Of a stretch of 64,000 bases of DNA, positions 555 to 19,932 are shown in pieces. A program made the position numbers and the translations under genes. The number at the start of each line of letters is the position of its first letter. Positions within the stretch are counted from its first letter, which is position 1. The notes below the pieces were generated by a model. That model saw nothing but the letters and a program-made list of their open reading frames with translations, did not search any database and was not told where the DNA came from. The stretch comes from Ferroacidibacillus organovorans (GTDB lineage: Bacteria > Bacillota > Bacilli > Alicyclobacillales > SLC66), in contig NZ_LSUQ01000010.1 in assembly GCF_001642725.1 (NCBI RefSeq), forward strand, positions 1-64,000. Reading direction: 5' to 3'.

Positions 555-593
555 AAGAGTGGTCTCTCTACATACTGAGAGACCACTCTTTCT
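555..593. terminator. probable (bidirectional) intrinsic terminator between tRNA cluster and convergent operon
   Basis: 14-bp perfect stem AAGAGTGGTCTCTC / GAGAGACCACTCTT followed by T-rich bases. Confidence 0.8.
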
Positions 594-599
594 ATGAAT

Positions 600-887
600 T
601 CAAGGACGATTTTTTACAGGGTTTTCTTTTTTGGAGAGGGTACCCATTCGATTTAATTTTGGTTGTAAACTTTGATCTGATTTTTTTACGCGATGCCTCC
701 ACATTGATGCAGCGAGTGGACTAGCTGTTGCATACAGTGAAATGGATAATAAGGTTGCGCCAATGAATCCAGTCACCCAACCACCATCAATTACTGAATT
801 ATAAATCAACCCTGTCGCATAAACACCTACAATACAAAATACACCAACTACCCATCTTTTAGGAACCAAAACTTTATGTTGTTTCAT
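600..887 (-). CDS. small two-TM membrane protein (95 aa), last gene of the cytochrome b operon
   Basis: ORF 600..956; start re-placed at ATG 887 (MKQHK, GGAAGG upstream, overlaps stop of upstream gene); two hydrophobic segments. Confidence 0.6.
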   Translation of the reverse strand: MKQHKVLVPKRWVVGVFCIVGVYATGLIYNSVIDGGWVTGFIGATLLSISLYATASPLAASMWRHRVKKSDQSLQPKLNRMGTLSKKENPVKNRP

Positions 888-1863
888 GACTTTTTTCACG
901 CCTTCCATTGCCATATTCACGATAGTACCTTCGCCAAATGAGCTTGTAAATTCCAATCCATCTAGGAATGGAACGCACCACTGGAATAAACGGTGTCAGC
1001 ATTAGTAATACAGTAACAATTCCCACCGTTAATACAACCAACAAATCTGCGGAGGATGATGTTGAAAATGGGGGGATCTGATACAGTAGTGTGTAGTACC
1101 ATAGCCAAACTGCACCTGGATAGTTTCCGGTCTCCTTAATAATTCCCCACTGATTACCCGTCATATCGAGTTGGTTTGCGTATTGTTCATCGGGAGTTGC
1201 TTGAAACAACAACAGGGACTTGGTTCTGTTCATCGCAGGCATGGGTCCCGTAGCGCCGTCGATTGCAGATTCAAGTAATCCTGTTCGTGCTAGCGCAAGG
1301 TACGCATTGATCAGTTGTGGCACCGGTCCGTAATCCGTTGTCATATTTCCTGGCAGGATGAGTTTGCCATTTGTAATTTTCGCCTTGTTTAAAGCGTTGC
1401 TTACTGTGTCTGCCCAGTGGATCTGCGTTGAACGTGTCGCATGGTTCCACGCGGTTAGAGGAGCCTCTAAGGATGGTGCGATTGGAAGAAATCGGGTCAG
1501 TGGACCAATGACATTGTCTTGCGCTGAGTTCACGGGTATTTGTACCCCTGCCCATGACTCTGGTGAGATCGGCCCTAGATGTTGCGCTGCATTAGGCGTA
1601 TGGTTATAGGGTGGGCCATATGTAGAAATTGCATCTTGCAAAGAAAGATCATCGAGAGCGGTTTGTATGAGAAGTTTGGGATCTTGTTGTACCACTTGCT
1701 TTGCAGTTAATGCAGGTACATCTGGTGTAGAAAATATTCCTGCAAGGACAAGTACGATAACACCGATCACACTTAACGCAACGAGCATTTCTTTGATCAG
1801 GTCGTATGGCACTTGGGGATATTGGCTATTGGTGTTTGTCCACGTTCTGCGCAATCGACTCAT
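874..1863 (-). CDS. membrane protein resembling cytochrome b6 subunit IV with a large inserted extracytoplasmic domain
   Basis: N-terminal TM (YDLIKEMLVALSVIGVIVLVLAG), ~200-aa soluble region, C-terminal PGAVWLWYYTLLYQIP and LLMLTPFIP TM region; directly follows cytochrome b gene; start uncertain (ATG 1863 or TTG 1854 after AAGGAG). Confidence 0.65.
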   Translation of the reverse strand: MSRLRRTWTNTNSQYPQVPYDLIKEMLVALSVIGVIVLVLAGIFSTPDVPALTAKQVVQQDPKLLIQTALDDLSLQDAISTYGPPYNHTPNAAQHLGPISPESWAGVQIPVNSAQDNVIGPLTRFLPIAPSLEAPLTAWNHATRSTQIHWADTVSNALNKAKITNGKLILPGNMTTDYGPVPQLINAYLALARTGLLESAIDGATGPMPAMNRTKSLLLFQATPDEQYANQLDMTGNQWGIIKETGNYPGAVWLWYYTLLYQIPPFSTSSSADLLVVLTVGIVTVLLMLTPFIPVVRSIPRWIGIYKLIWRRYYREYGNGRREKSHETT

Positions 1864-2467
1864 CTCCTTCAAGCGGATGTGAAAATGGTTCCACGACACC
1901 GTGCATTCGGACGAGCATTAAATGAACAATTAGCAGAACAATAATCGCCATGGGTAATACAAAAATATGAAGACCATACATTTGACCAAAATTTAGAATG
2001 TTGAAGAATCCGTCAATTCCTGTGGCATTCATCGCGTCTTTTCCTTGTACACCGATCCATTGTGCATCAAAGTTGGTCTGTGATAGATAGCCTGTCAATG
2101 CGGCGACAATGGAAACAAGAAACAATAACCATCCGCCAATCCACGTCCAGTGGCGGCCACCGCGCCATGCCGCCATCAAAAACTGTGCCCATAGGTGTAG
2201 AATCATGAAAAAAAAGAATGCCTGCACGGACCAGAAGTGCATACTGTTAAAGAAGTGACCAACGGTTGAAACATGCCACCAATCAGGTCCGAAGACCGCC
2301 AGTATCGTGCCTGTAACGATAAGCCATACCAATGCAGCAACCGTTAAAATTCCGAATAGATACACATACGAATCAACATATGCAGGCATTGTATCCGGTA
2401 AAAGATTTTCCATAGGTAAAACATCTTGGATCCACAAACGGATCGTTTTTGTCAGATTTGTTTTCAT
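1826..2467 (-). CDS. cytochrome b/b6 N-terminal domain protein
   Basis: four TM helices; heme-ligand His pairs HFWSVQAFFFFMILH and HIFVLPMAIIVLLIVH; TWIGG and TGY motifs; GGGAGG RBS. Confidence 0.88.
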   Translation of the reverse strand: MKTNLTKTIRLWIQDVLPMENLLPDTMPAYVDSYVYLFGILTVAALVWLIVTGTILAVFGPDWWHVSTVGHFFNSMHFWSVQAFFFFMILHLWAQFLMAAWRGGRHWTWIGGWLLFLVSIVAALTGYLSQTNFDAQWIGVQGKDAMNATGIDGFFNILNFGQMYGLHIFVLPMAIIVLLIVHLMLVRMHGVVEPFSHPLEGDESIAQNVDKHQ

Positions 2468-2619
2468 TTATTGTCCTCCCTTGGAAACGGAAGTACCAAT
2501 GCCAATGCAAAAACAATCACCATCAGCGCTACAACAATCATGTCTGCGACAGAGAGATTTAACCACTGATATTGCCATGCCCAGCCAGCATGTATTGGCG
2601 GTTGTAATTGACCGTTCAT
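2464..2619 (-). CDS. unannotated 51-aa single-TM membrane peptide (MNGQLQPPIHAGWAWQYQWLNLSVADMIVVALMVIVFALALVLPFPREDNK)
   Basis: translated by hand; AAGGGG RBS upstream; its TGA overlaps the cytochrome b ATG (ATGA); below the ORF-track cutoff. Confidence 0.75.
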   Translation of the reverse strand: MNGQLQPPIHAGWAWQYQWLNLSVADMIVVALMVIVFALALVLPFPREDNK

Positions 2620-2896: not shown

Positions 2897-4012
2897 ATGT
2901 CAGTTTATCGCGGCAAACATATGTGGATATGGGAAGTGGCAAGTACGCTCAGCGGAGATGTTCAATCCATCATTTCTTTGGGACAACGTCTCGGCATTGA
3001 TGGTTTTCTCGTGAAGAGCCATGATGGAACCACCGTTTTGTCACAATTTTCGAAGGTTGTTAAACCACTTCAACAGGCAGGATTTATGGTTGGTGCATGG
3101 GGTTTTGTCTACGGCAGTCAACCGACAGCGGAAGCACAAGCCGCACAGCAGGGAATTGATGCGGGGGCAGACTGGTATGTGATTGATGCAGAGACGGCGT
3201 ATGATGGAAAGGCGCCGGAGGCAACAGTATTTGGACATGCGCTACGCACAAAAAACCCTCATCTCGTGATCGGATACGCACCTTTTGCGTTCCCAAGTCT
3301 TCATCCGCAATTCCCATACACAGCGTTTAGCGCATTTTGTGACGTATGTCTCCCGCAAATTTATTGGGCGGAATTTGGTCAGACAGTTACAAGTGCATTC
3401 GATCAATCAATCGCTGAATTAAAGCCGCTGGGTCACCCGATTGCCCCGATTGGTCAGTCTTTCGCAGCGGCAACAGCCGCAGAGATAGAACAGTTTGCCG
3501 TATTAGCCCATCAGGCTTTATGTCCCGGGATCAGTTACTATGACCTGCAATCGGCAAGCAGTGTGCAACTTCAGGCCATCAAAAATGTAACTGTGTATCC
3601 CGCGCCGTCGTATGCACACGCGTCTGCGACCTCAGGATCAACGCCTGCGACCTCAGGATCAACGTCTGCGACCTCAGGATCAACGCCTGCGACCTCAGGA
3701 TCAACGTCTGCGACCTCAGGATCAACGTCGACGCCAACTTCAGCGGCTGGGTCGTCATCCGCATCGACAACGCCAAGCGTTACACCATCACCATCGGCGG
3801 TGACGCGCTCACTGCCTGTCACTCCGTCTGACGTTTCAACGTCAGACTGGTTTTATGCGGCTGTTACAGATCTTCTCAAGCTGGGAATCGTGACTGCGTA
3901 TCAAGATGGGTTGTTTAAGCCAAACGAAACGATCACCCGCGCACAAGCTGCGGATTGGATTAATCGCCTGCGAATCTATCTTGAAAAGGCATCAGGTTTG
4001 CCGATTGCGTAA
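2897..4012 (+). CDS. putative TIM-barrel glycoside hydrolase (GH25/lysozyme-like) with Ser/Thr-rich linker and C-terminal SLH domain
   Basis: LVKSHDG, VIDAE (DxE), PQIYW motifs; SLH-like DVSTSDWFYAAV...GLFKPNETITRAQAA; AAGGGAG RBS. Confidence 0.7.
   Translation: MSVYRGKHMWIWEVASTLSGDVQSIISLGQRLGIDGFLVKSHDGTTVLSQFSKVVKPLQQAGFMVGAWGFVYGSQPTAEAQAAQQGIDAGADWYVIDAETAYDGKAPEATVFGHALRTKNPHLVIGYAPFAFPSLHPQFPYTAFSAFCDVCLPQIYWAEFGQTVTSAFDQSIAELKPLGHPIAPIGQSFAAATAAEIEQFAVLAHQALCPGISYYDLQSASSVQLQAIKNVTVYPAPSYAHASATSGSTPATSGSTSATSGSTPATSGSTSATSGSTSTPTSAAGSSSASTTPSVTPSPSAVTRSLPVTPSDVSTSDWFYAAVTDLLKLGIVTAYQDGLFKPNETITRAQAADWINRLRIYLEKASGLPIA
3621..3729 (+). repeat. intragenic tandem repeat, 5 x 21 bp (CG[T/C]CTGCGACCTCAGGATCAA)
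   Basis: five exact units alternating T/C at one position, encoding (S/P)ATSGST. Confidence 0.95.
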
Positions 4013-5340: not shown

Positions 5341-6636
5341 TTGATACAAACGGATATCATCGTGATTGGTGGCGGCCCAGCGGGTCTCATGGCGGCCATT
5401 GCCGCCGCCCAATCGGGGGCGAACGTGACGATGCTAGAAAAAGGTGATCGTCTTGGACGCAAATTGCTGATCTCAGGCGGCGGGCGCTGTAACGTGACAA
5501 ACGCTAAAGGGACAGAGCATATTCTTCACAACATACCAGGGAATGGCCGTTTTTTACACAGTGTATTCTCGCAGTGGTCGAGCTATGAGATCATTCATTT
5601 TTTTGAATCGCGGGGCGTCAAACTAAAAGAAGAGGATCGGGGGCGTCTTTTCCCTGTCACCGATCGCGCGCAAACGGTTCTTGACGCGGTATTGCGTGAA
5701 TTGGAGCGTCAGGATGTGAAGATCCGCTATGCGTCTCACGTCAGTCATATCCTCGGTGAGGGTGGCGGTGTCGCGGGTGTTCTTTTACAAACTGGAGAGC
5801 GCGTAAAAGCGCGGGCAATCGTTCTTGCAACAGGTGGCTGTAGCGCTCCGCTCACAGGCTCTACAGGGGATGGGTATGTGATGGCGGAAGAGCATGGTCA
5901 TACGATTGTGGCGCCTTATCCCACATCGGTCGCACTCGTATCACACGATGTGCTCATTCAAGAAAAAAGATTGCAGGGGCTTTCTTTAAAAAGTGTGAAG
6001 GCAACACTTTTTGATGAGCGAGGCAAACGCGTTATTCAAGAAGAAGGAGATTTACTTTTTACGCACTTTGGTTTGTCTGGTCCGCTCGCGCTGAGATTAA
6101 GTCACAGTGTCGTGACGCGACAAATGAAAACAGGTAAACAGCCATTAATGGTACAATTAGATCTGTTGCCAGGATTTACAAAGGAAGCTTTTATGCAAAT
6201 GCTTGATGAGAACCGTGATGCGCATTCAAAAAAATCGGTGCGCAGCATGCTGAGGGAGATTGTGCCTGAACGTTTGGCAGATGTTGTCTTTGAACGCTGT
6301 GGATTCAAAGCTTCGGTCACACTTCGCGAACTTTTGTCAAAGAATGGAGAAGAAATTGTCGATCAGTTGAAGCGATTTGAAGTAGTGGTCCATGATACAC
6401 TTGGGTTGGCAAAATCGACAGTGACAGGCGGTGGAATACGTCTTTCAGAAGTCGATCCGCGCACACTGCAATCTAAACAAATACGCGGACTATTTTTTGC
6501 TGGTGAAATTCTCGATGTGCATGCCCATACAGGAGGGTATAATATTACTGTAGCTTTTACGACGGGACATGTCGCAGGAACGCATGCGGCGAGTTTCGCT
6601 CTTCAGCAAGATGCGGATAGGGGAGTACATTCCTGA
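5341..6636 (+). CDS. NAD(P)/FAD-dependent oxidoreductase, HI0933/YtfP (BaiN-like) family
   Basis: GGGPAG, GRKLLISGGGRCNVTN, GSTGDG, LFTHFGLSGP, TGGYN motifs. Confidence 0.92.
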   Translation: MIQTDIIVIGGGPAGLMAAIAAAQSGANVTMLEKGDRLGRKLLISGGGRCNVTNAKGTEHILHNIPGNGRFLHSVFSQWSSYEIIHFFESRGVKLKEEDRGRLFPVTDRAQTVLDAVLRELERQDVKIRYASHVSHILGEGGGVAGVLLQTGERVKARAIVLATGGCSAPLTGSTGDGYVMAEEHGHTIVAPYPTSVALVSHDVLIQEKRLQGLSLKSVKATLFDERGKRVIQEEGDLLFTHFGLSGPLALRLSHSVVTRQMKTGKQPLMVQLDLLPGFTKEAFMQMLDENRDAHSKKSVRSMLREIVPERLADVVFERCGFKASVTLRELLSKNGEEIVDQLKRFEVVVHDTLGLAKSTVTGGGIRLSEVDPRTLQSKQIRGLFFAGEILDVHAHTGGYNITVAFTTGHVAGTHAASFALQQDADRGVHS

Positions 6637-18004: not shown

Positions 18005-18901
18005 ATGAATGTGAGCATTCAATGGTTTCCCGGCCATATGGCCAAAGCAAAGCGAGAAATTCAAGCGAATTTATCCCTTGTCGACGTGGTAATCGAACTG
18101 CGTGACGCGCGATTGCCAGAATCGAGCGGCAATCCTCTTCTGTCTGAGTTGCTCCAGCAAAAGATACGCGTTTTAGCGTTGACGAAGGCCGATTTGGCGG
18201 ATCCTTCCGAGACACAACGCTTCTGCTCATACTATAAGTCTGTCGGCATGGGCGTGGATGCAGTGATCCCTGTGAACATACGCAAAAATGTTGGGTTAAA
18301 ATCTTTGAAATTGGCGTGTGAGCAGGCGATGGAGAGTAAGTTTGAACGCATGGCAAAACGAGGGATTCGCAAACGCGCAGTACGCGCGATGGTTGTGGGC
18401 ATTCCCAATGTGGGAAAATCTTCGTTGATCAATGCGATGGCTGGCCGAAGTGTTGCAAAGACTGGAGATCGTCCCGGAGTAACGCAATCCCAACAGTGGA
18501 TTAAACTTGCTGGATCGATTGAGTTGCTTGATACGCCAGGGCTTCTTTGGCCGAAATTTGAGGATCGGGATGCAGCGCTGCGCCTGGCGTGGTCGGGTGC
18601 GATAAAATCCAGTCTGCTTCGACCTGTCGAGCTTGCACTGGCACTTCTCACTTTCATGAATGAACACTACCCAATTGCTCTAGAATCACGCTATGGTGTA
18701 AAACCGTTTGCGTCTGTGAATGATGAACAGGTGCTTGGTGTTTTAGAACAAATTGGCATGCGTCGGGGCGCGCTGCGCAGCGGTGGCCAGGTTGACGATG
18801 AACTTGCGGCACAAATGCTCTTGCGCGATTACCAGACGGGGCTTCTTGGACCGATGACGCTTGAGAAGGCGCCGAGTGTTGAGGGGCAGATGCTTGAGTG
18901 A
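18005..18901 (+). CDS. rbgA: ribosome biogenesis GTPase RbgA/YlqF
   Basis: IQWFPGHMAKA, TKAD, GIPNVGKS, DTPG (circularly permuted GTPase). Confidence 0.96.
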   Translation: MNVSIQWFPGHMAKAKREIQANLSLVDVVIELRDARLPESSGNPLLSELLQQKIRVLALTKADLADPSETQRFCSYYKSVGMGVDAVIPVNIRKNVGLKSLKLACEQAMESKFERMAKRGIRKRAVRAMVVGIPNVGKSSLINAMAGRSVAKTGDRPGVTQSQQWIKLAGSIELLDTPGLLWPKFEDRDAALRLAWSGAIKSSLLRPVELALALLTFMNEHYPIALESRYGVKPFASVNDEQVLGVLEQIGMRRGALRSGGQVDDELAAQMLLRDYQTGLLGPMTLEKAPSVEGQMLE

Positions 18902-19932
18902 AACCCACAAAAAAAGACGCTGCCTATGCAGCGTATCGATTCGACCAAATGCTGCGGTGTGACTACCCGCAATTGGCTGGCATCGATGAGGCTGGACGCG
19001 GTCCGCTTGCGGGGCCAGTTGTGGCGGCAGTCGTCCTTTTGCCTCCGGATCGATCCGACGATTTGTATTATGACTCAAAGGTCCTCACTGAGCGTGAGCG
19101 GGAAGTCGCATTCGCGTCGATTATGACACATGCGCTTGATGTGCAGGTTGGCATAATTGATTCTAACGCGATTGACCATTACAATATCTTACAGGCTACG
19201 TTTCAGGCAGCTCGTGTCGCGGTGAATCAACTGCGGCATGTGCCTGATCTCTACTTAATTGACGGTATGCACGTACCTGAATTGGATGCGCCTCAGCGAA
19301 AGTTGATCAAAGGGGACGCAACGAGCCAATCCATTGCTGCCGCTTCAATTGTTGCAAAGGTGACACGAGATCACCTGATGATTGAACTTGACCAGCAGTA
19401 CCCAGAGTATGGCTTTGCTAAACACAAAGGATATGGTACGGCGCTACACTTAGAGCGACTCTCGATGTACGGACCGTGCGCTGCGCATCGCAAGACGTTT
19501 GCACCCGTTCGTGAACGCTTACAAGTTCGTGAACCCGTAAATGATCGTCGAGTGAGCGTATCAGATGAAGCAAGAGCGATTCAAGGCGCTAGTTCAGAAT
19601 CGTATGCGCGCGAGTATCTTGAACAGCAGGGATGGAAATTACTCGCGCAAAATTGGCGATGTTCACTAGGCGAACTCGATTTGATCTTTGAGTCTTTCAA
19701 TGAGATTATCTGCGTTGAGGTGCGCTCAAAGAAAGCGGCTTCTCTCAACGATGCGCTACGCCTTGCGGGAGAGTCGATTTCGCGAGTGAAGAAGAATAAG
19801 GTTCGCCAATTGGCAGAGATTTTTGCCAGGAGCAATCACGTGGATCCGCGTCGTATGCGGTGTGATGTCGTACTTGTAGGAATTTCTGAGAATGGAGAAT
19901 GGGAAATTTCCCATATTCCGTCTGTGCTGTGA
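18898..19932 (+). CDS. rnhB: ribonuclease HII fused to C-terminal YraN (UPF0102) nuclease domain
   Basis: GIDEAGRGPLAGP, SIAAASIVAKVTRD, HKGYGT then G..SE..A..YLEQQG, NWRC..GELDLI, VEVR, RCDVV in one frame. Confidence 0.9.
   Translation: MKPTKKDAAYAAYRFDQMLRCDYPQLAGIDEAGRGPLAGPVVAAVVLLPPDRSDDLYYDSKVLTEREREVAFASIMTHALDVQVGIIDSNAIDHYNILQATFQAARVAVNQLRHVPDLYLIDGMHVPELDAPQRKLIKGDATSQSIAAASIVAKVTRDHLMIELDQQYPEYGFAKHKGYGTALHLERLSMYGPCAAHRKTFAPVRERLQVREPVNDRRVSVSDEARAIQGASSESYAREYLEQQGWKLLAQNWRCSLGELDLIFESFNEIICVEVRSKKAASLNDALRLAGESISRVKKNKVRQLAEIFARSNHVDPRRMRCDVVLVGISENGEWEISHIPSVL

Follow-up and report, generated by a model that had tools for sequence, protein, structure and literature searches.

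In the 64-kb stretch of Ferroacidibacillus organovorans DNA analysed here (positions 1 to 64,000 of contig NZ_LSUQ01000010.1, hereafter the window), positions 600-2619 carry four overlapping minus-strand open reading frames (ORFs). These centre on a dihaem cytochrome b-like protein of 213 amino acids (aa), which we refer to as the cytochrome, and the 326-aa membrane protein encoded directly after it, which we refer to as its partner (Table 1). The overlaps amount to 4 nucleotides (nt) between the 51-aa peptide gene and the cytochrome gene, 29 nt between the cytochrome and partner genes, and 14 nt between the partner and 95-aa genes, and the genes are therefore coupled. Neither a CxxCH nor a Rieske CxH...CxxH motif occurs in the four window proteins, whose only Cys is a single one in the 95-aa protein, and neither a Rieske gene nor qcrABC is found within the window. 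The four overlapping genes are as the initial annotation of the operon, which was made from the letters alone, had described them. The partner gene is read from the TTG at 1854, 9 nt after a GAAGGAG that was spotted by eye, and the 95-aa form of the last gene is present letter for letter in the ESM Atlas.

Table 1. Coordinates of the operon and the adjoining hairpin in the window
Feature	Position	Strand	Remarks
51-aa peptide gene	2464..2619	-	ORF; single helix; conserved small subunit
213-aa cytochrome b6/QcrB-like dihaem cytochrome	1826..2467	-	ORF; four helices, no Cys
326-aa two-helix membrane protein, probable derived subunit IV	874..1854	-	database form P0121; maximal ORF 874-1899 = 341 aa
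95-aa two-helix protein	600..887	-	ATG at 887; maximal ORF 600-956 = 118 aa
14-bp hairpin, possible two-way terminator	555..590	.	between converging tRNA cluster and operon

A search with the cytochrome returned 1195 proteins at E<=1e-3 and one with the 341-aa ORF returned 769, while a scan of species genomes with the cytochrome alignment gave at least 599 pattern matches, of which 592 were confirmed; the operon genes are therefore not chance ORFs. The closest protein matches of both the cytochrome and its partner come from Alicyclobacillus species, at 73-86% identity. Eighty loci were kept as 14-kb pieces, in which neighbouring genes were read within ~7 kb. Judged by the phylum in the record title, these loci belong to Actinomycetota (47), Chloroflexota (10), Dormibacterota (9), Bacillota (7), Rokubacteria (1) and Saccharimonadota (1), with five unassigned, and many of those outside Bacillota are soil metagenome-assembled genomes of Actinomycetota, Chloroflexota and Dormibacterota.

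A divergent cytochrome b that keeps both pairs of haem ligands

By sequence comparison the 213-aa protein is a divergent homologue of cytochrome b6/QcrB. It has the two His pairs and the four-helix type of a cytochrome b N-terminal domain, with Pfam matches just above the cutoffs (Cytochrom_B_N_2, PF13631, 34.1 bits for a cutoff of 27; Cytochrome_B, PF00033, 29.1 for 27.2), and stays far short of all family thresholds of NCBIfam, among them those of the cytochrome b6 model (PRK03735; 47.1 bits, cutoff 325) and of ExtP, its best match there (51.8 bits, cutoff 290). When a profile of 30 relatives is compared with solved structures, cytochromes b6 come first (E 3e-17), followed by actinobacterial and bc1 cytochromes b, and hhalign aligns the cytochrome with Brevibacillus QcrB at a probability of 98.5% (E 1.5e-15, ~29% identity).

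Four haem-ligand His residues at spacings of 14 and 15 had been recognised from the start, along with the lack of Cys, and both observations hold. His77/His91 (spacing 14) and His167/His182 (spacing 15) match the haem ligands of QcrB and of solved b6 structures, and where QcrB carries its haem-ci motif CFGG the window cytochrome reads LFGI, with Leu at the Cys position and no Cys anywhere else. These four ligands are invariant in 30/30 aligned split forms, as is His65, and the equivalents of all five are invariant in 35/35 fused relatives. Judged from these alignments, the cytochrome retains bis-His ligands for two haems b, one of low and one of high potential, and lacks the Cys by which a third haem would be covalently bound. 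The outer-face cd loop (SQ.NFD.QW...GKDA.N...FFN.LNFGQ) is among its best-conserved stretches, and identity between phyla, measured over the best tblastn segment, is roughly 50-65%.

In a tree of cytochromes the module family (37 rows and one long-branch relative) forms a clade whose stem measures 1.66 changes per site, with a Shimodaira-Hasegawa-like approximate likelihood ratio (SH-aLRT) of 99, and is separated from an outgroup of four canonical sequences (two Bacillales QcrB and two haloarchaeal cytochromes b) that does not fix its place in the full cytochrome b tree. The haloarchaeal and the canonical QcrC/qcrABC comparison genes were drawn from records of a plasmid collection. When a representative library was searched with the cytochrome, the best 150 matches held only family members and fragments, and no canonical outgroups. 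The same library contains a distant relative of 982 aa (P0445), in which a cytochrome b N-terminal domain is followed by ~800 residues with weak matches to PQQ_2-like beta-propellers; a long form of 474 aa (P0473) joins it in a group (SH-aLRT 97) that lies beyond the family clade.

A conserved unit of three genes without Rieske or cytochrome c genes nearby

The partner gene follows the cytochrome gene on the same strand in all 80 loci. Plain tblastn detects the 51-aa peptide in 45/80 loci. A hidden Markov model (HMM) built from 39 locus ORFs and the window copy, with the consensus ...HW.F..IS..NL.VI..M..VF.LA...PFP, finds a same-strand match in 80/80 loci within 450 nt upstream of the cytochrome (worst E 1.7e-16); among the controls, 0/80 reverse complements and 0/76 far-upstream segments are matched. 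Neither Pfam nor NCBIfam has a match for this peptide, and the same is true of the 95-aa/118-aa protein, a relative of which is detected downstream by tblastn in only five loci (L001-L005), all from the closest Bacillota relatives. Some TraQ-like look-alikes of the 95-aa protein turned up in the ESM Atlas, with scores below 0.9, and were treated as chance. Since the 51-aa type is present in 80/80 loci and the 95-aa type in 5/80, the conserved unit is three genes and not the four that were first proposed; the 95-aa gene is a lineage-specific accessory or passenger, restricted to the close relatives of the window.

Searching the 80 loci by tblastn with four Rieske queries and two from QcrC produced no hit at E<=1e-2, and the Rieske motif is found in none of their 1303 called ORFs. 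A lone CxxCH occurs in seven of these ORFs, two of which fall into a cluster represented by a protein with matches to zinc-alcohol-dehydrogenase domains. Taken with the position of the cytochrome far below the b6 cutoff, its low identity to QcrB and its separate clade, these searches support the view that the operon family represents a separate dihaem cytochrome b module of non-canonical type, different from QcrABC, as found in Bacillales, and from b6f. This is what the initial annotation had proposed. The feature is confirmed as real, conserved and uncharacterised.

The partner as a probable derived subunit IV

Pfam and NCBIfam have no family for the 326/341-aa protein of the window, and Pfam finds nothing in 30/30 members even at E<=10; the 769 relatives are labelled as hypothetical, or wrongly as 'cytochrome B6'. 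The AlphaFold monomer of the partner, with a mean predicted local distance difference test score (pLDDT) of 68.3, has an N-terminal helix, a helical domain of ~200 residues, a C-terminal helix and a basic tail. By the positive-inside rule the middle domain would face outward, and no His, Cys or Met is invariant in this extracytoplasmic domain, in the alignment of split forms or in that of fused forms. Searches of the Protein Data Bank (PDB) with the monomer gave no match at E<=0.001 (best E 0.88), and the ESM Atlas returned only the partner's own family. The C-terminal 99 aa were also compared with the PDB, which yielded an MS2 coat protein and a consensus olfactory receptor construct, both spurious.

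In profile comparison with QcrC, the top hhalign match places LWYYTLLYQIPP...TPFI (also given as LWYYTLLYQIPPF...TPFI) onto DWYFLFLYQLLKYP...APFL, covering the PDWY quinol-site (Qo) motif and helix F of QcrC, with an E of 2.4e-3 against one QcrC sequence and of 6.4e-4 (score 31.7) against two. A second match, collinear with the first, places LIKEMLVALSVIGVIVLV onto LLKEWMVAAVCLLGFLVL, which corresponds to helix E (E 0.2). In 200 column shuffles the score averaged 13.9 (standard deviation 2.4, maximum 22.6), with 0/200 reaching 31.7, and the reversed sequence scored 12.2. By eye, PALTAKQ..DP of the partner resembles PLTAKADP of QcrC as well.

Where QcrC has PDWY, the partner has WLWY, so that W and Y are kept and the Pro and acidic residue of P[D/E]WY are replaced by Trp and Leu. 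These replacements are themselves conserved: W250, L251 and W252 are invariant in 30/30 split forms and the corresponding W, L and W in 35/35 fused forms, and a PxWY-type Qo motif is absent from the partner. Laid out on the QcrC alignment, the partner would consist of helix E, an insert of ~190 aa in the ef loop, WLWY, helix F and a basic amphipathic tail, without the third helix of subunit IV. From these alignments the 326-aa protein is most likely a derived subunit IV and, because of this, the module is best read as a remodelled cytochrome b core, and not as a cytochrome with unrelated partners.

Linkage, fusion and predicted complex

In 4/80 loci (L014, L016, L022 and L027) the cytochrome and its partner are encoded in one ORF without an intervening stop. 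Fusions were judged by an explicit frame-and-stop test, which reduced 20 apparent long ORFs to these four, and genes in GC-rich loci were called by a score of third-codon-position GC. With the L014 fusion as the query, 114 of the 120 matches listed are 517-571 aa long. As the fused forms stand in two places of a quick tree, fusion or fission may tentatively have occurred more than once. The partner is in any case obligately linked to the cytochrome, and sometimes fused to it.

The two proteins are also predicted to bind each other. Complex prediction gave scores of 0.83, 0.84 and 0.84 in three runs, compared with 0.00 for the best of three controls; the calibration mark for this score is reached by 116/157 solved complexes and by 2/215 mismatched pairs. 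The partner has a pLDDT of at least 83 in the complex, and the runs agree in at least 92% of contacts. The predicted interface includes cytochrome residues 130-162 and partner residues 208-251; the cytochrome contributes helices A and B and the cd loop to it, and the partner its two helices along with the 208-251 stretch. Alignments of our own were supplied to the prediction, and solved b6f and bc1 structures may have lifted the score through likeness.

Additional copies were seen in several relatives. Two of the Bacillota loci have a second, diverged cytochrome/partner pair (L001, 9750-11364, and L005, 10675-12248, minus strand), 2-3 kb downstream and on the opposite strand, with 48-50% and 38% identity to the window proteins. 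For Alicyclobacillus sp. ALC3 there are two cytochrome entries (P0005 and P0007), which are identical over the aligned region.

Hypoxia-type genes in the neighbourhood

LuxR-type response regulators lie near the module in 29/80 loci, GAF-GAF-HisKA_3 kinases with the DevS/DosT architecture in 18 and universal stress proteins in 16. At least one of these three is present in 39/80 loci, namely in 24 of 47 from Actinomycetota, 5 of 10 from Chloroflexota, 5 of 9 from Dormibacterota and 1 of 7 from Bacillota. Less frequent neighbours are SQR/NDH-2-like flavoproteins (10/80), Pyridox_ox_2 proteins (9/80), ADP-forming acetyl-CoA synthetase (8/80), phosphoketolase and acetate kinase (7/80 each) and WS/DGAT (5/80). 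We take the core of the palindrome GGGACnnnnGTCCC to correspond to the core of the DevR box of mycobacteria. Allowing up to one mismatch, this palindrome has a density of 0.244 per kb in the region upstream of the operon, compared with 0.069 per kb in the rest of the loci. Such a box is found upstream in 11/80 loci, 8 of which are Acidimicrobiia, with the box 282-307 nt before the cytochrome start. In L044 and L012, boxes of the GGGACnnnnGTCCC type also stand before genes for stress proteins, Pyridox_ox_2 proteins and regulators. In Actinomycetota, Chloroflexota and Dormibacterota, then, the module is often found among genes of the DosR/DevR hypoxia type.

Two loci deserve separate mention. 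L044 (Acidimicrobiaceae) has several palindromes of the GGGACnnnnGTCCC type at 1600-2200 and 5390-5800, before universal-stress-protein, Pyridox_ox_2 and unlabelled genes, which suggests a dense local regulon. On plasmid pI of Streptomyces mirabilis (L082, 4956-5927), a different N-terminal-only cytochrome b of 323 aa adjoins a phosphoketolase gene; it scores 143 bits with the ExtP model and 109 bits with the cytochrome b6 model, and represents a lineage separate from the module family.

Surroundings of the operon in the window

Six tRNA genes on the plus strand at 4-539 (Tyr, Gln, Thr, Met, Phe, Cys) converge on the operon, and the hairpin listed in Table 1 follows the last of them, tRNA-Cys, which ends at 539. 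The hairpin is stable (-25.2 kcal/mol, z-score -5.5, with 0/200 shuffles folding equally well), but a consensus terminator scan did not flag it, since no T-run comes after it. The proposal that it serves as a terminator common to the tRNA cluster and the operon is thus plausible but only partly confirmed. A promoter scan found no minus-strand promoter upstream of 2619.

Divergent to the operon, at 2897-4012 (plus strand), is a gene for a 371-aa protein with one C-terminal SLH domain (Pfam, E 1.3e-13), a Ser/Thr-rich run of short repeats (ATSGSTPATSGSTS...) and no family match for its N-terminal 250 residues. The remainder of the window contains housekeeping and flagellar genes. Among these, a 344-aa ORF at 18898-19932 (plus strand) combines RNase HII (residues 27-203) with a UPF0102/YraN-type domain (residues 234-327). 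These two are usually encoded by separate genes, and the ORF may be a fusion or a merge made in ORF calling.

Relation to known systems

Like Bacillales QcrABC and the b6f complex of cyanobacteria and plastids, the module divides its cytochrome b between a four-helix dihaem protein and the membrane protein that comes after it. The His spacings of 14 and 15 are of the b6 type, the best matches among solved structures are cytochromes b6, and the partner's segments for helix E, ...WY...YQ..P and helix F are like those of QcrC. Small one-helix subunits also exist in b6f. Unlike QcrABC and b6f, the module loci have no Rieske protein or cytochrome c domain, the cytochrome lacks the haem ci Cys (LFGI for CFGG), and the partner has WLWY as its Qo motif, the ~190-aa ef-loop insert and two helices where these systems have three.

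Other cytochromes b resemble the module in part. The ExtP/Cbc-type systems of Geobacter likewise have a b6-like dihaem cytochrome that works without a Rieske protein. They pair with multihaem c-type cytochromes, which the module loci do not contain, and the ExtP score of the window cytochrome is far from the cutoff of that family. With redox-loop cytochromes b of the NarI type, a protein family not known to be related to the module cytochrome, it would share only a principle, as proposed below: outer quinol oxidation and transmembrane transfer by two stacked haems b. NarI, however, serves as the docking site of a cytoplasmic enzyme, for which the window operon has no gene.

The literature treats cytochrome b and the Rieske protein as the inseparable ancient catalytic core of bc-type complexes (PMC4122944, in the part available to us). 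In the portion of their paper that was accessible, Kao and Hunte 2014 left 45 unpaired N-terminal cytochromes out of their tree of Qo motifs (PMC4122944). Dibrova et al. 2017 describe, in the text at hand, extra b6-like paralogues of obscure function, such as the cyanobacterial subfamily K and the large subfamily H (PMC5600118). The module family is not recognisable among the subfamilies in that part of the paper; unlike subfamily K, which is described there as having lost a haem ligand, it keeps all four.

The closest precedent comes from Sulfobacillus. According to the available part of Justice et al. 2014, only one of the Sulfobacillus genomes has a bc complex, and Rieske-less petB operons are noted as 'not canonical bc complexes' that 'may perform some other function' (PMC4378227). 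Their 'di-heme cytochrome b homologous to petB' very probably belongs to the same family as the module, and a protein from a Sulfobacillus metagenome-assembled genome (P0211) is among the relatives of the partner. The accessible portion of that paper gives a single remark, without analysis of the partner genes, distribution or function, and our literature searches, within the text that sources made available, found no study of the family beyond it. The basic observation is thus already in print as a passing remark, at least in the part of PMC4378227 seen, which the initial annotation had not anticipated. The reading of the partner as subunit IV, the fusions, the small subunit, the wide distribution and the hypoxia-type context were not found in the accessible text of the literature searched.

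Proposed mechanism and alternative explanations

We consider the best overall explanation to be a stand-alone, Rieske-free cytochrome b complex made up of the b6-type cytochrome, a derived subunit IV and the one-helix peptide, to which we assign a probability of roughly one half. Its structural side, namely that the cytochrome b is of the split kind and comes with both a derived subunit IV and a small subunit, is in our judgement highly probable, whereas the mechanism and physiology taken together are offered as a tentative proposal.

In this proposal the three proteins would form a complex that works without a Rieske protein. The two helices of the partner and its conserved ETGNYPG.VWLW segment are predicted to pack on helices A and B and on the outer-face cd loop of the cytochrome. 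A Qo-type pocket would persist on the outer face in rebuilt form, lined by the cd loop, by WLWY in place of P[D/E]WY and possibly by the invariant His65, which may serve as a polar contact for the quinol; the ~190-aa insert may cover the space where the head of a Rieske protein would dock. Menaquinol would be oxidised at this outer site, with both electrons passing via the two haems to the cytoplasmic side of the membrane, where quinone or another small acceptor could take them up at a site of its own. Such a complex would act as an element of a redox loop and not in a Q cycle. In lineages with the DosR-like neighbourhood its likely use would be to keep the quinone pool and the membrane potential balanced when oxygen is scarce.

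Several points weigh against this explanation. Sequence homology between the partner and subunit IV is weak: the hhalign probability is 12-28%, Cytochrom_B_C of Pfam (PF00032) matches 0/30 partner members at E<=10, and the partner profile finds only two chance matches in the PDB (E 1 and 3.9). The AlphaFold model of a fusion (mean pLDDT 69.6), compared with full-length cytochromes b, gives template modelling (TM) scores of 0.32-0.45 and a root-mean-square deviation (rmsd) of ~20 Å over 460-570 columns. Its N-terminal domain matches well (TM 0.62 by target, rmsd 5.6 Å over 216 columns), and it is the C-terminal domain that superposes poorly on solved cytochromes b. Furthermore, loci of 14 kb leave room for a Rieske protein encoded elsewhere in the genome. 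As for the physiology, the window has no DevR-type box upstream, even at two mismatches, and no DosR-type neighbours, the latter being seen in just one of the Bacillota loci, and an alignment of the 260 nt upstream of the operon revealed no regulatory motif common to the window and its five closest loci. The neighbour counts lack a genome-wide background and are dominated by related Actinomycetota, and the match of the GGGACnnnnGTCCC core to the DevR box is putative. Lastly, the haems, the quinone and the activity are for every member of the family deduced from sequence, and a quinol site without a high-potential acceptor would be energetically awkward, the acceptor on the cytoplasmic face being only putative.

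Could the cytochrome instead be an alternative isoform in an ordinary bc complex, used perhaps under certain growth conditions, to which a canonical qcrABC at another site of the genome lends the Rieske protein and the cytochrome c? Such an isoform would be expected to keep all four haem ligands, the b6-type split and the W and Y of the Qo motif, as the module does, and surveys have found that Rieske genes do not always lie beside their cytochrome b (PMC5600118, as far as its available text goes). We nevertheless regard this as quite improbable, with no Rieske or QcrC-like gene in any of the 80 loci and the Pro and acidic residue of P[D/E]WY replaced by invariant residues in split and fused forms alike. 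The ~190-aa insert would, moreover, fall in the loop that lines the Rieske docking face of bc complexes, and the Sulfobacillus genomes reported, in the part of PMC4378227 at hand, as having no bc complex keep the petB-like operon. A non-respiratory role of a haem-binding membrane protein, be it redox or oxygen sensing, haem handling or the supply of electrons to extracytoplasmic repair or maturation in the manner of MsrQ or DsbB-type proteins, seems improbable too. It would fit the lack of an identifiable donor or acceptor, the association with regulators and stress proteins, and a conserved outer domain without a known fold; yet the strict keeping of both haem sites and the identity of the cytochrome between phyla suggest a constrained catalytic core, and no gene for an extracytoplasmic enzyme recurs nearby.

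The initial annotation had itself suggested a transmembrane conduit by which the electrons of quinol would reach a partner outside the cell or metals (Fe(II)/Fe(III) redox), which we hold to be the least probable of the alternatives. Relatives are indeed found in acidophiles that oxidise iron and in mine drainage, namely in Alicyclobacillus ferrooxydans, Sulfoacidibacillus ferrooxidans, Sulfobacillus and a metagenome from mine drainage, the large conserved domain of the partner is predicted to face outward, and conservation in the cytochrome is highest in its outer-face loops. However, 73 of the 80 loci lie outside Bacillota, many of them in soil metagenome-assembled genomes, and the recurring neighbours of the module are of a type linked to hypoxia or dormancy regulation and not to metal handling. 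Not one His, Cys or Met of the outer domain is invariant, nor do genes for c-type cytochromes, copper proteins or further redox proteins of the outer side turn up repeatedly near the module. Neither an outside partner nor a role in metal redox is supported.

Implications

What sets the module apart is that a large and tightly conserved family keeps both haems without a nearby Rieske gene, a canonical quinol-site motif or a cytochrome c. Hundreds of genomes could be better annotated if the partner were assigned as a derived subunit IV. If the complex is catalytically active, it would represent another way of using the cytochrome b scaffold and, for soil lineages that are abundant, a new component of energy metabolism. 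The link to a DosR-like neighbourhood points to a testable role in low-oxygen survival. The module may, as a tentative view, even represent an unrecognised class of respiratory enzyme across Terrabacteria, independent of a Rieske protein and with its own capped quinone site, which in many of these organisms would belong to a dormancy regulon of the DosR type and sustain quinone turnover and membrane potential during oxygen starvation.

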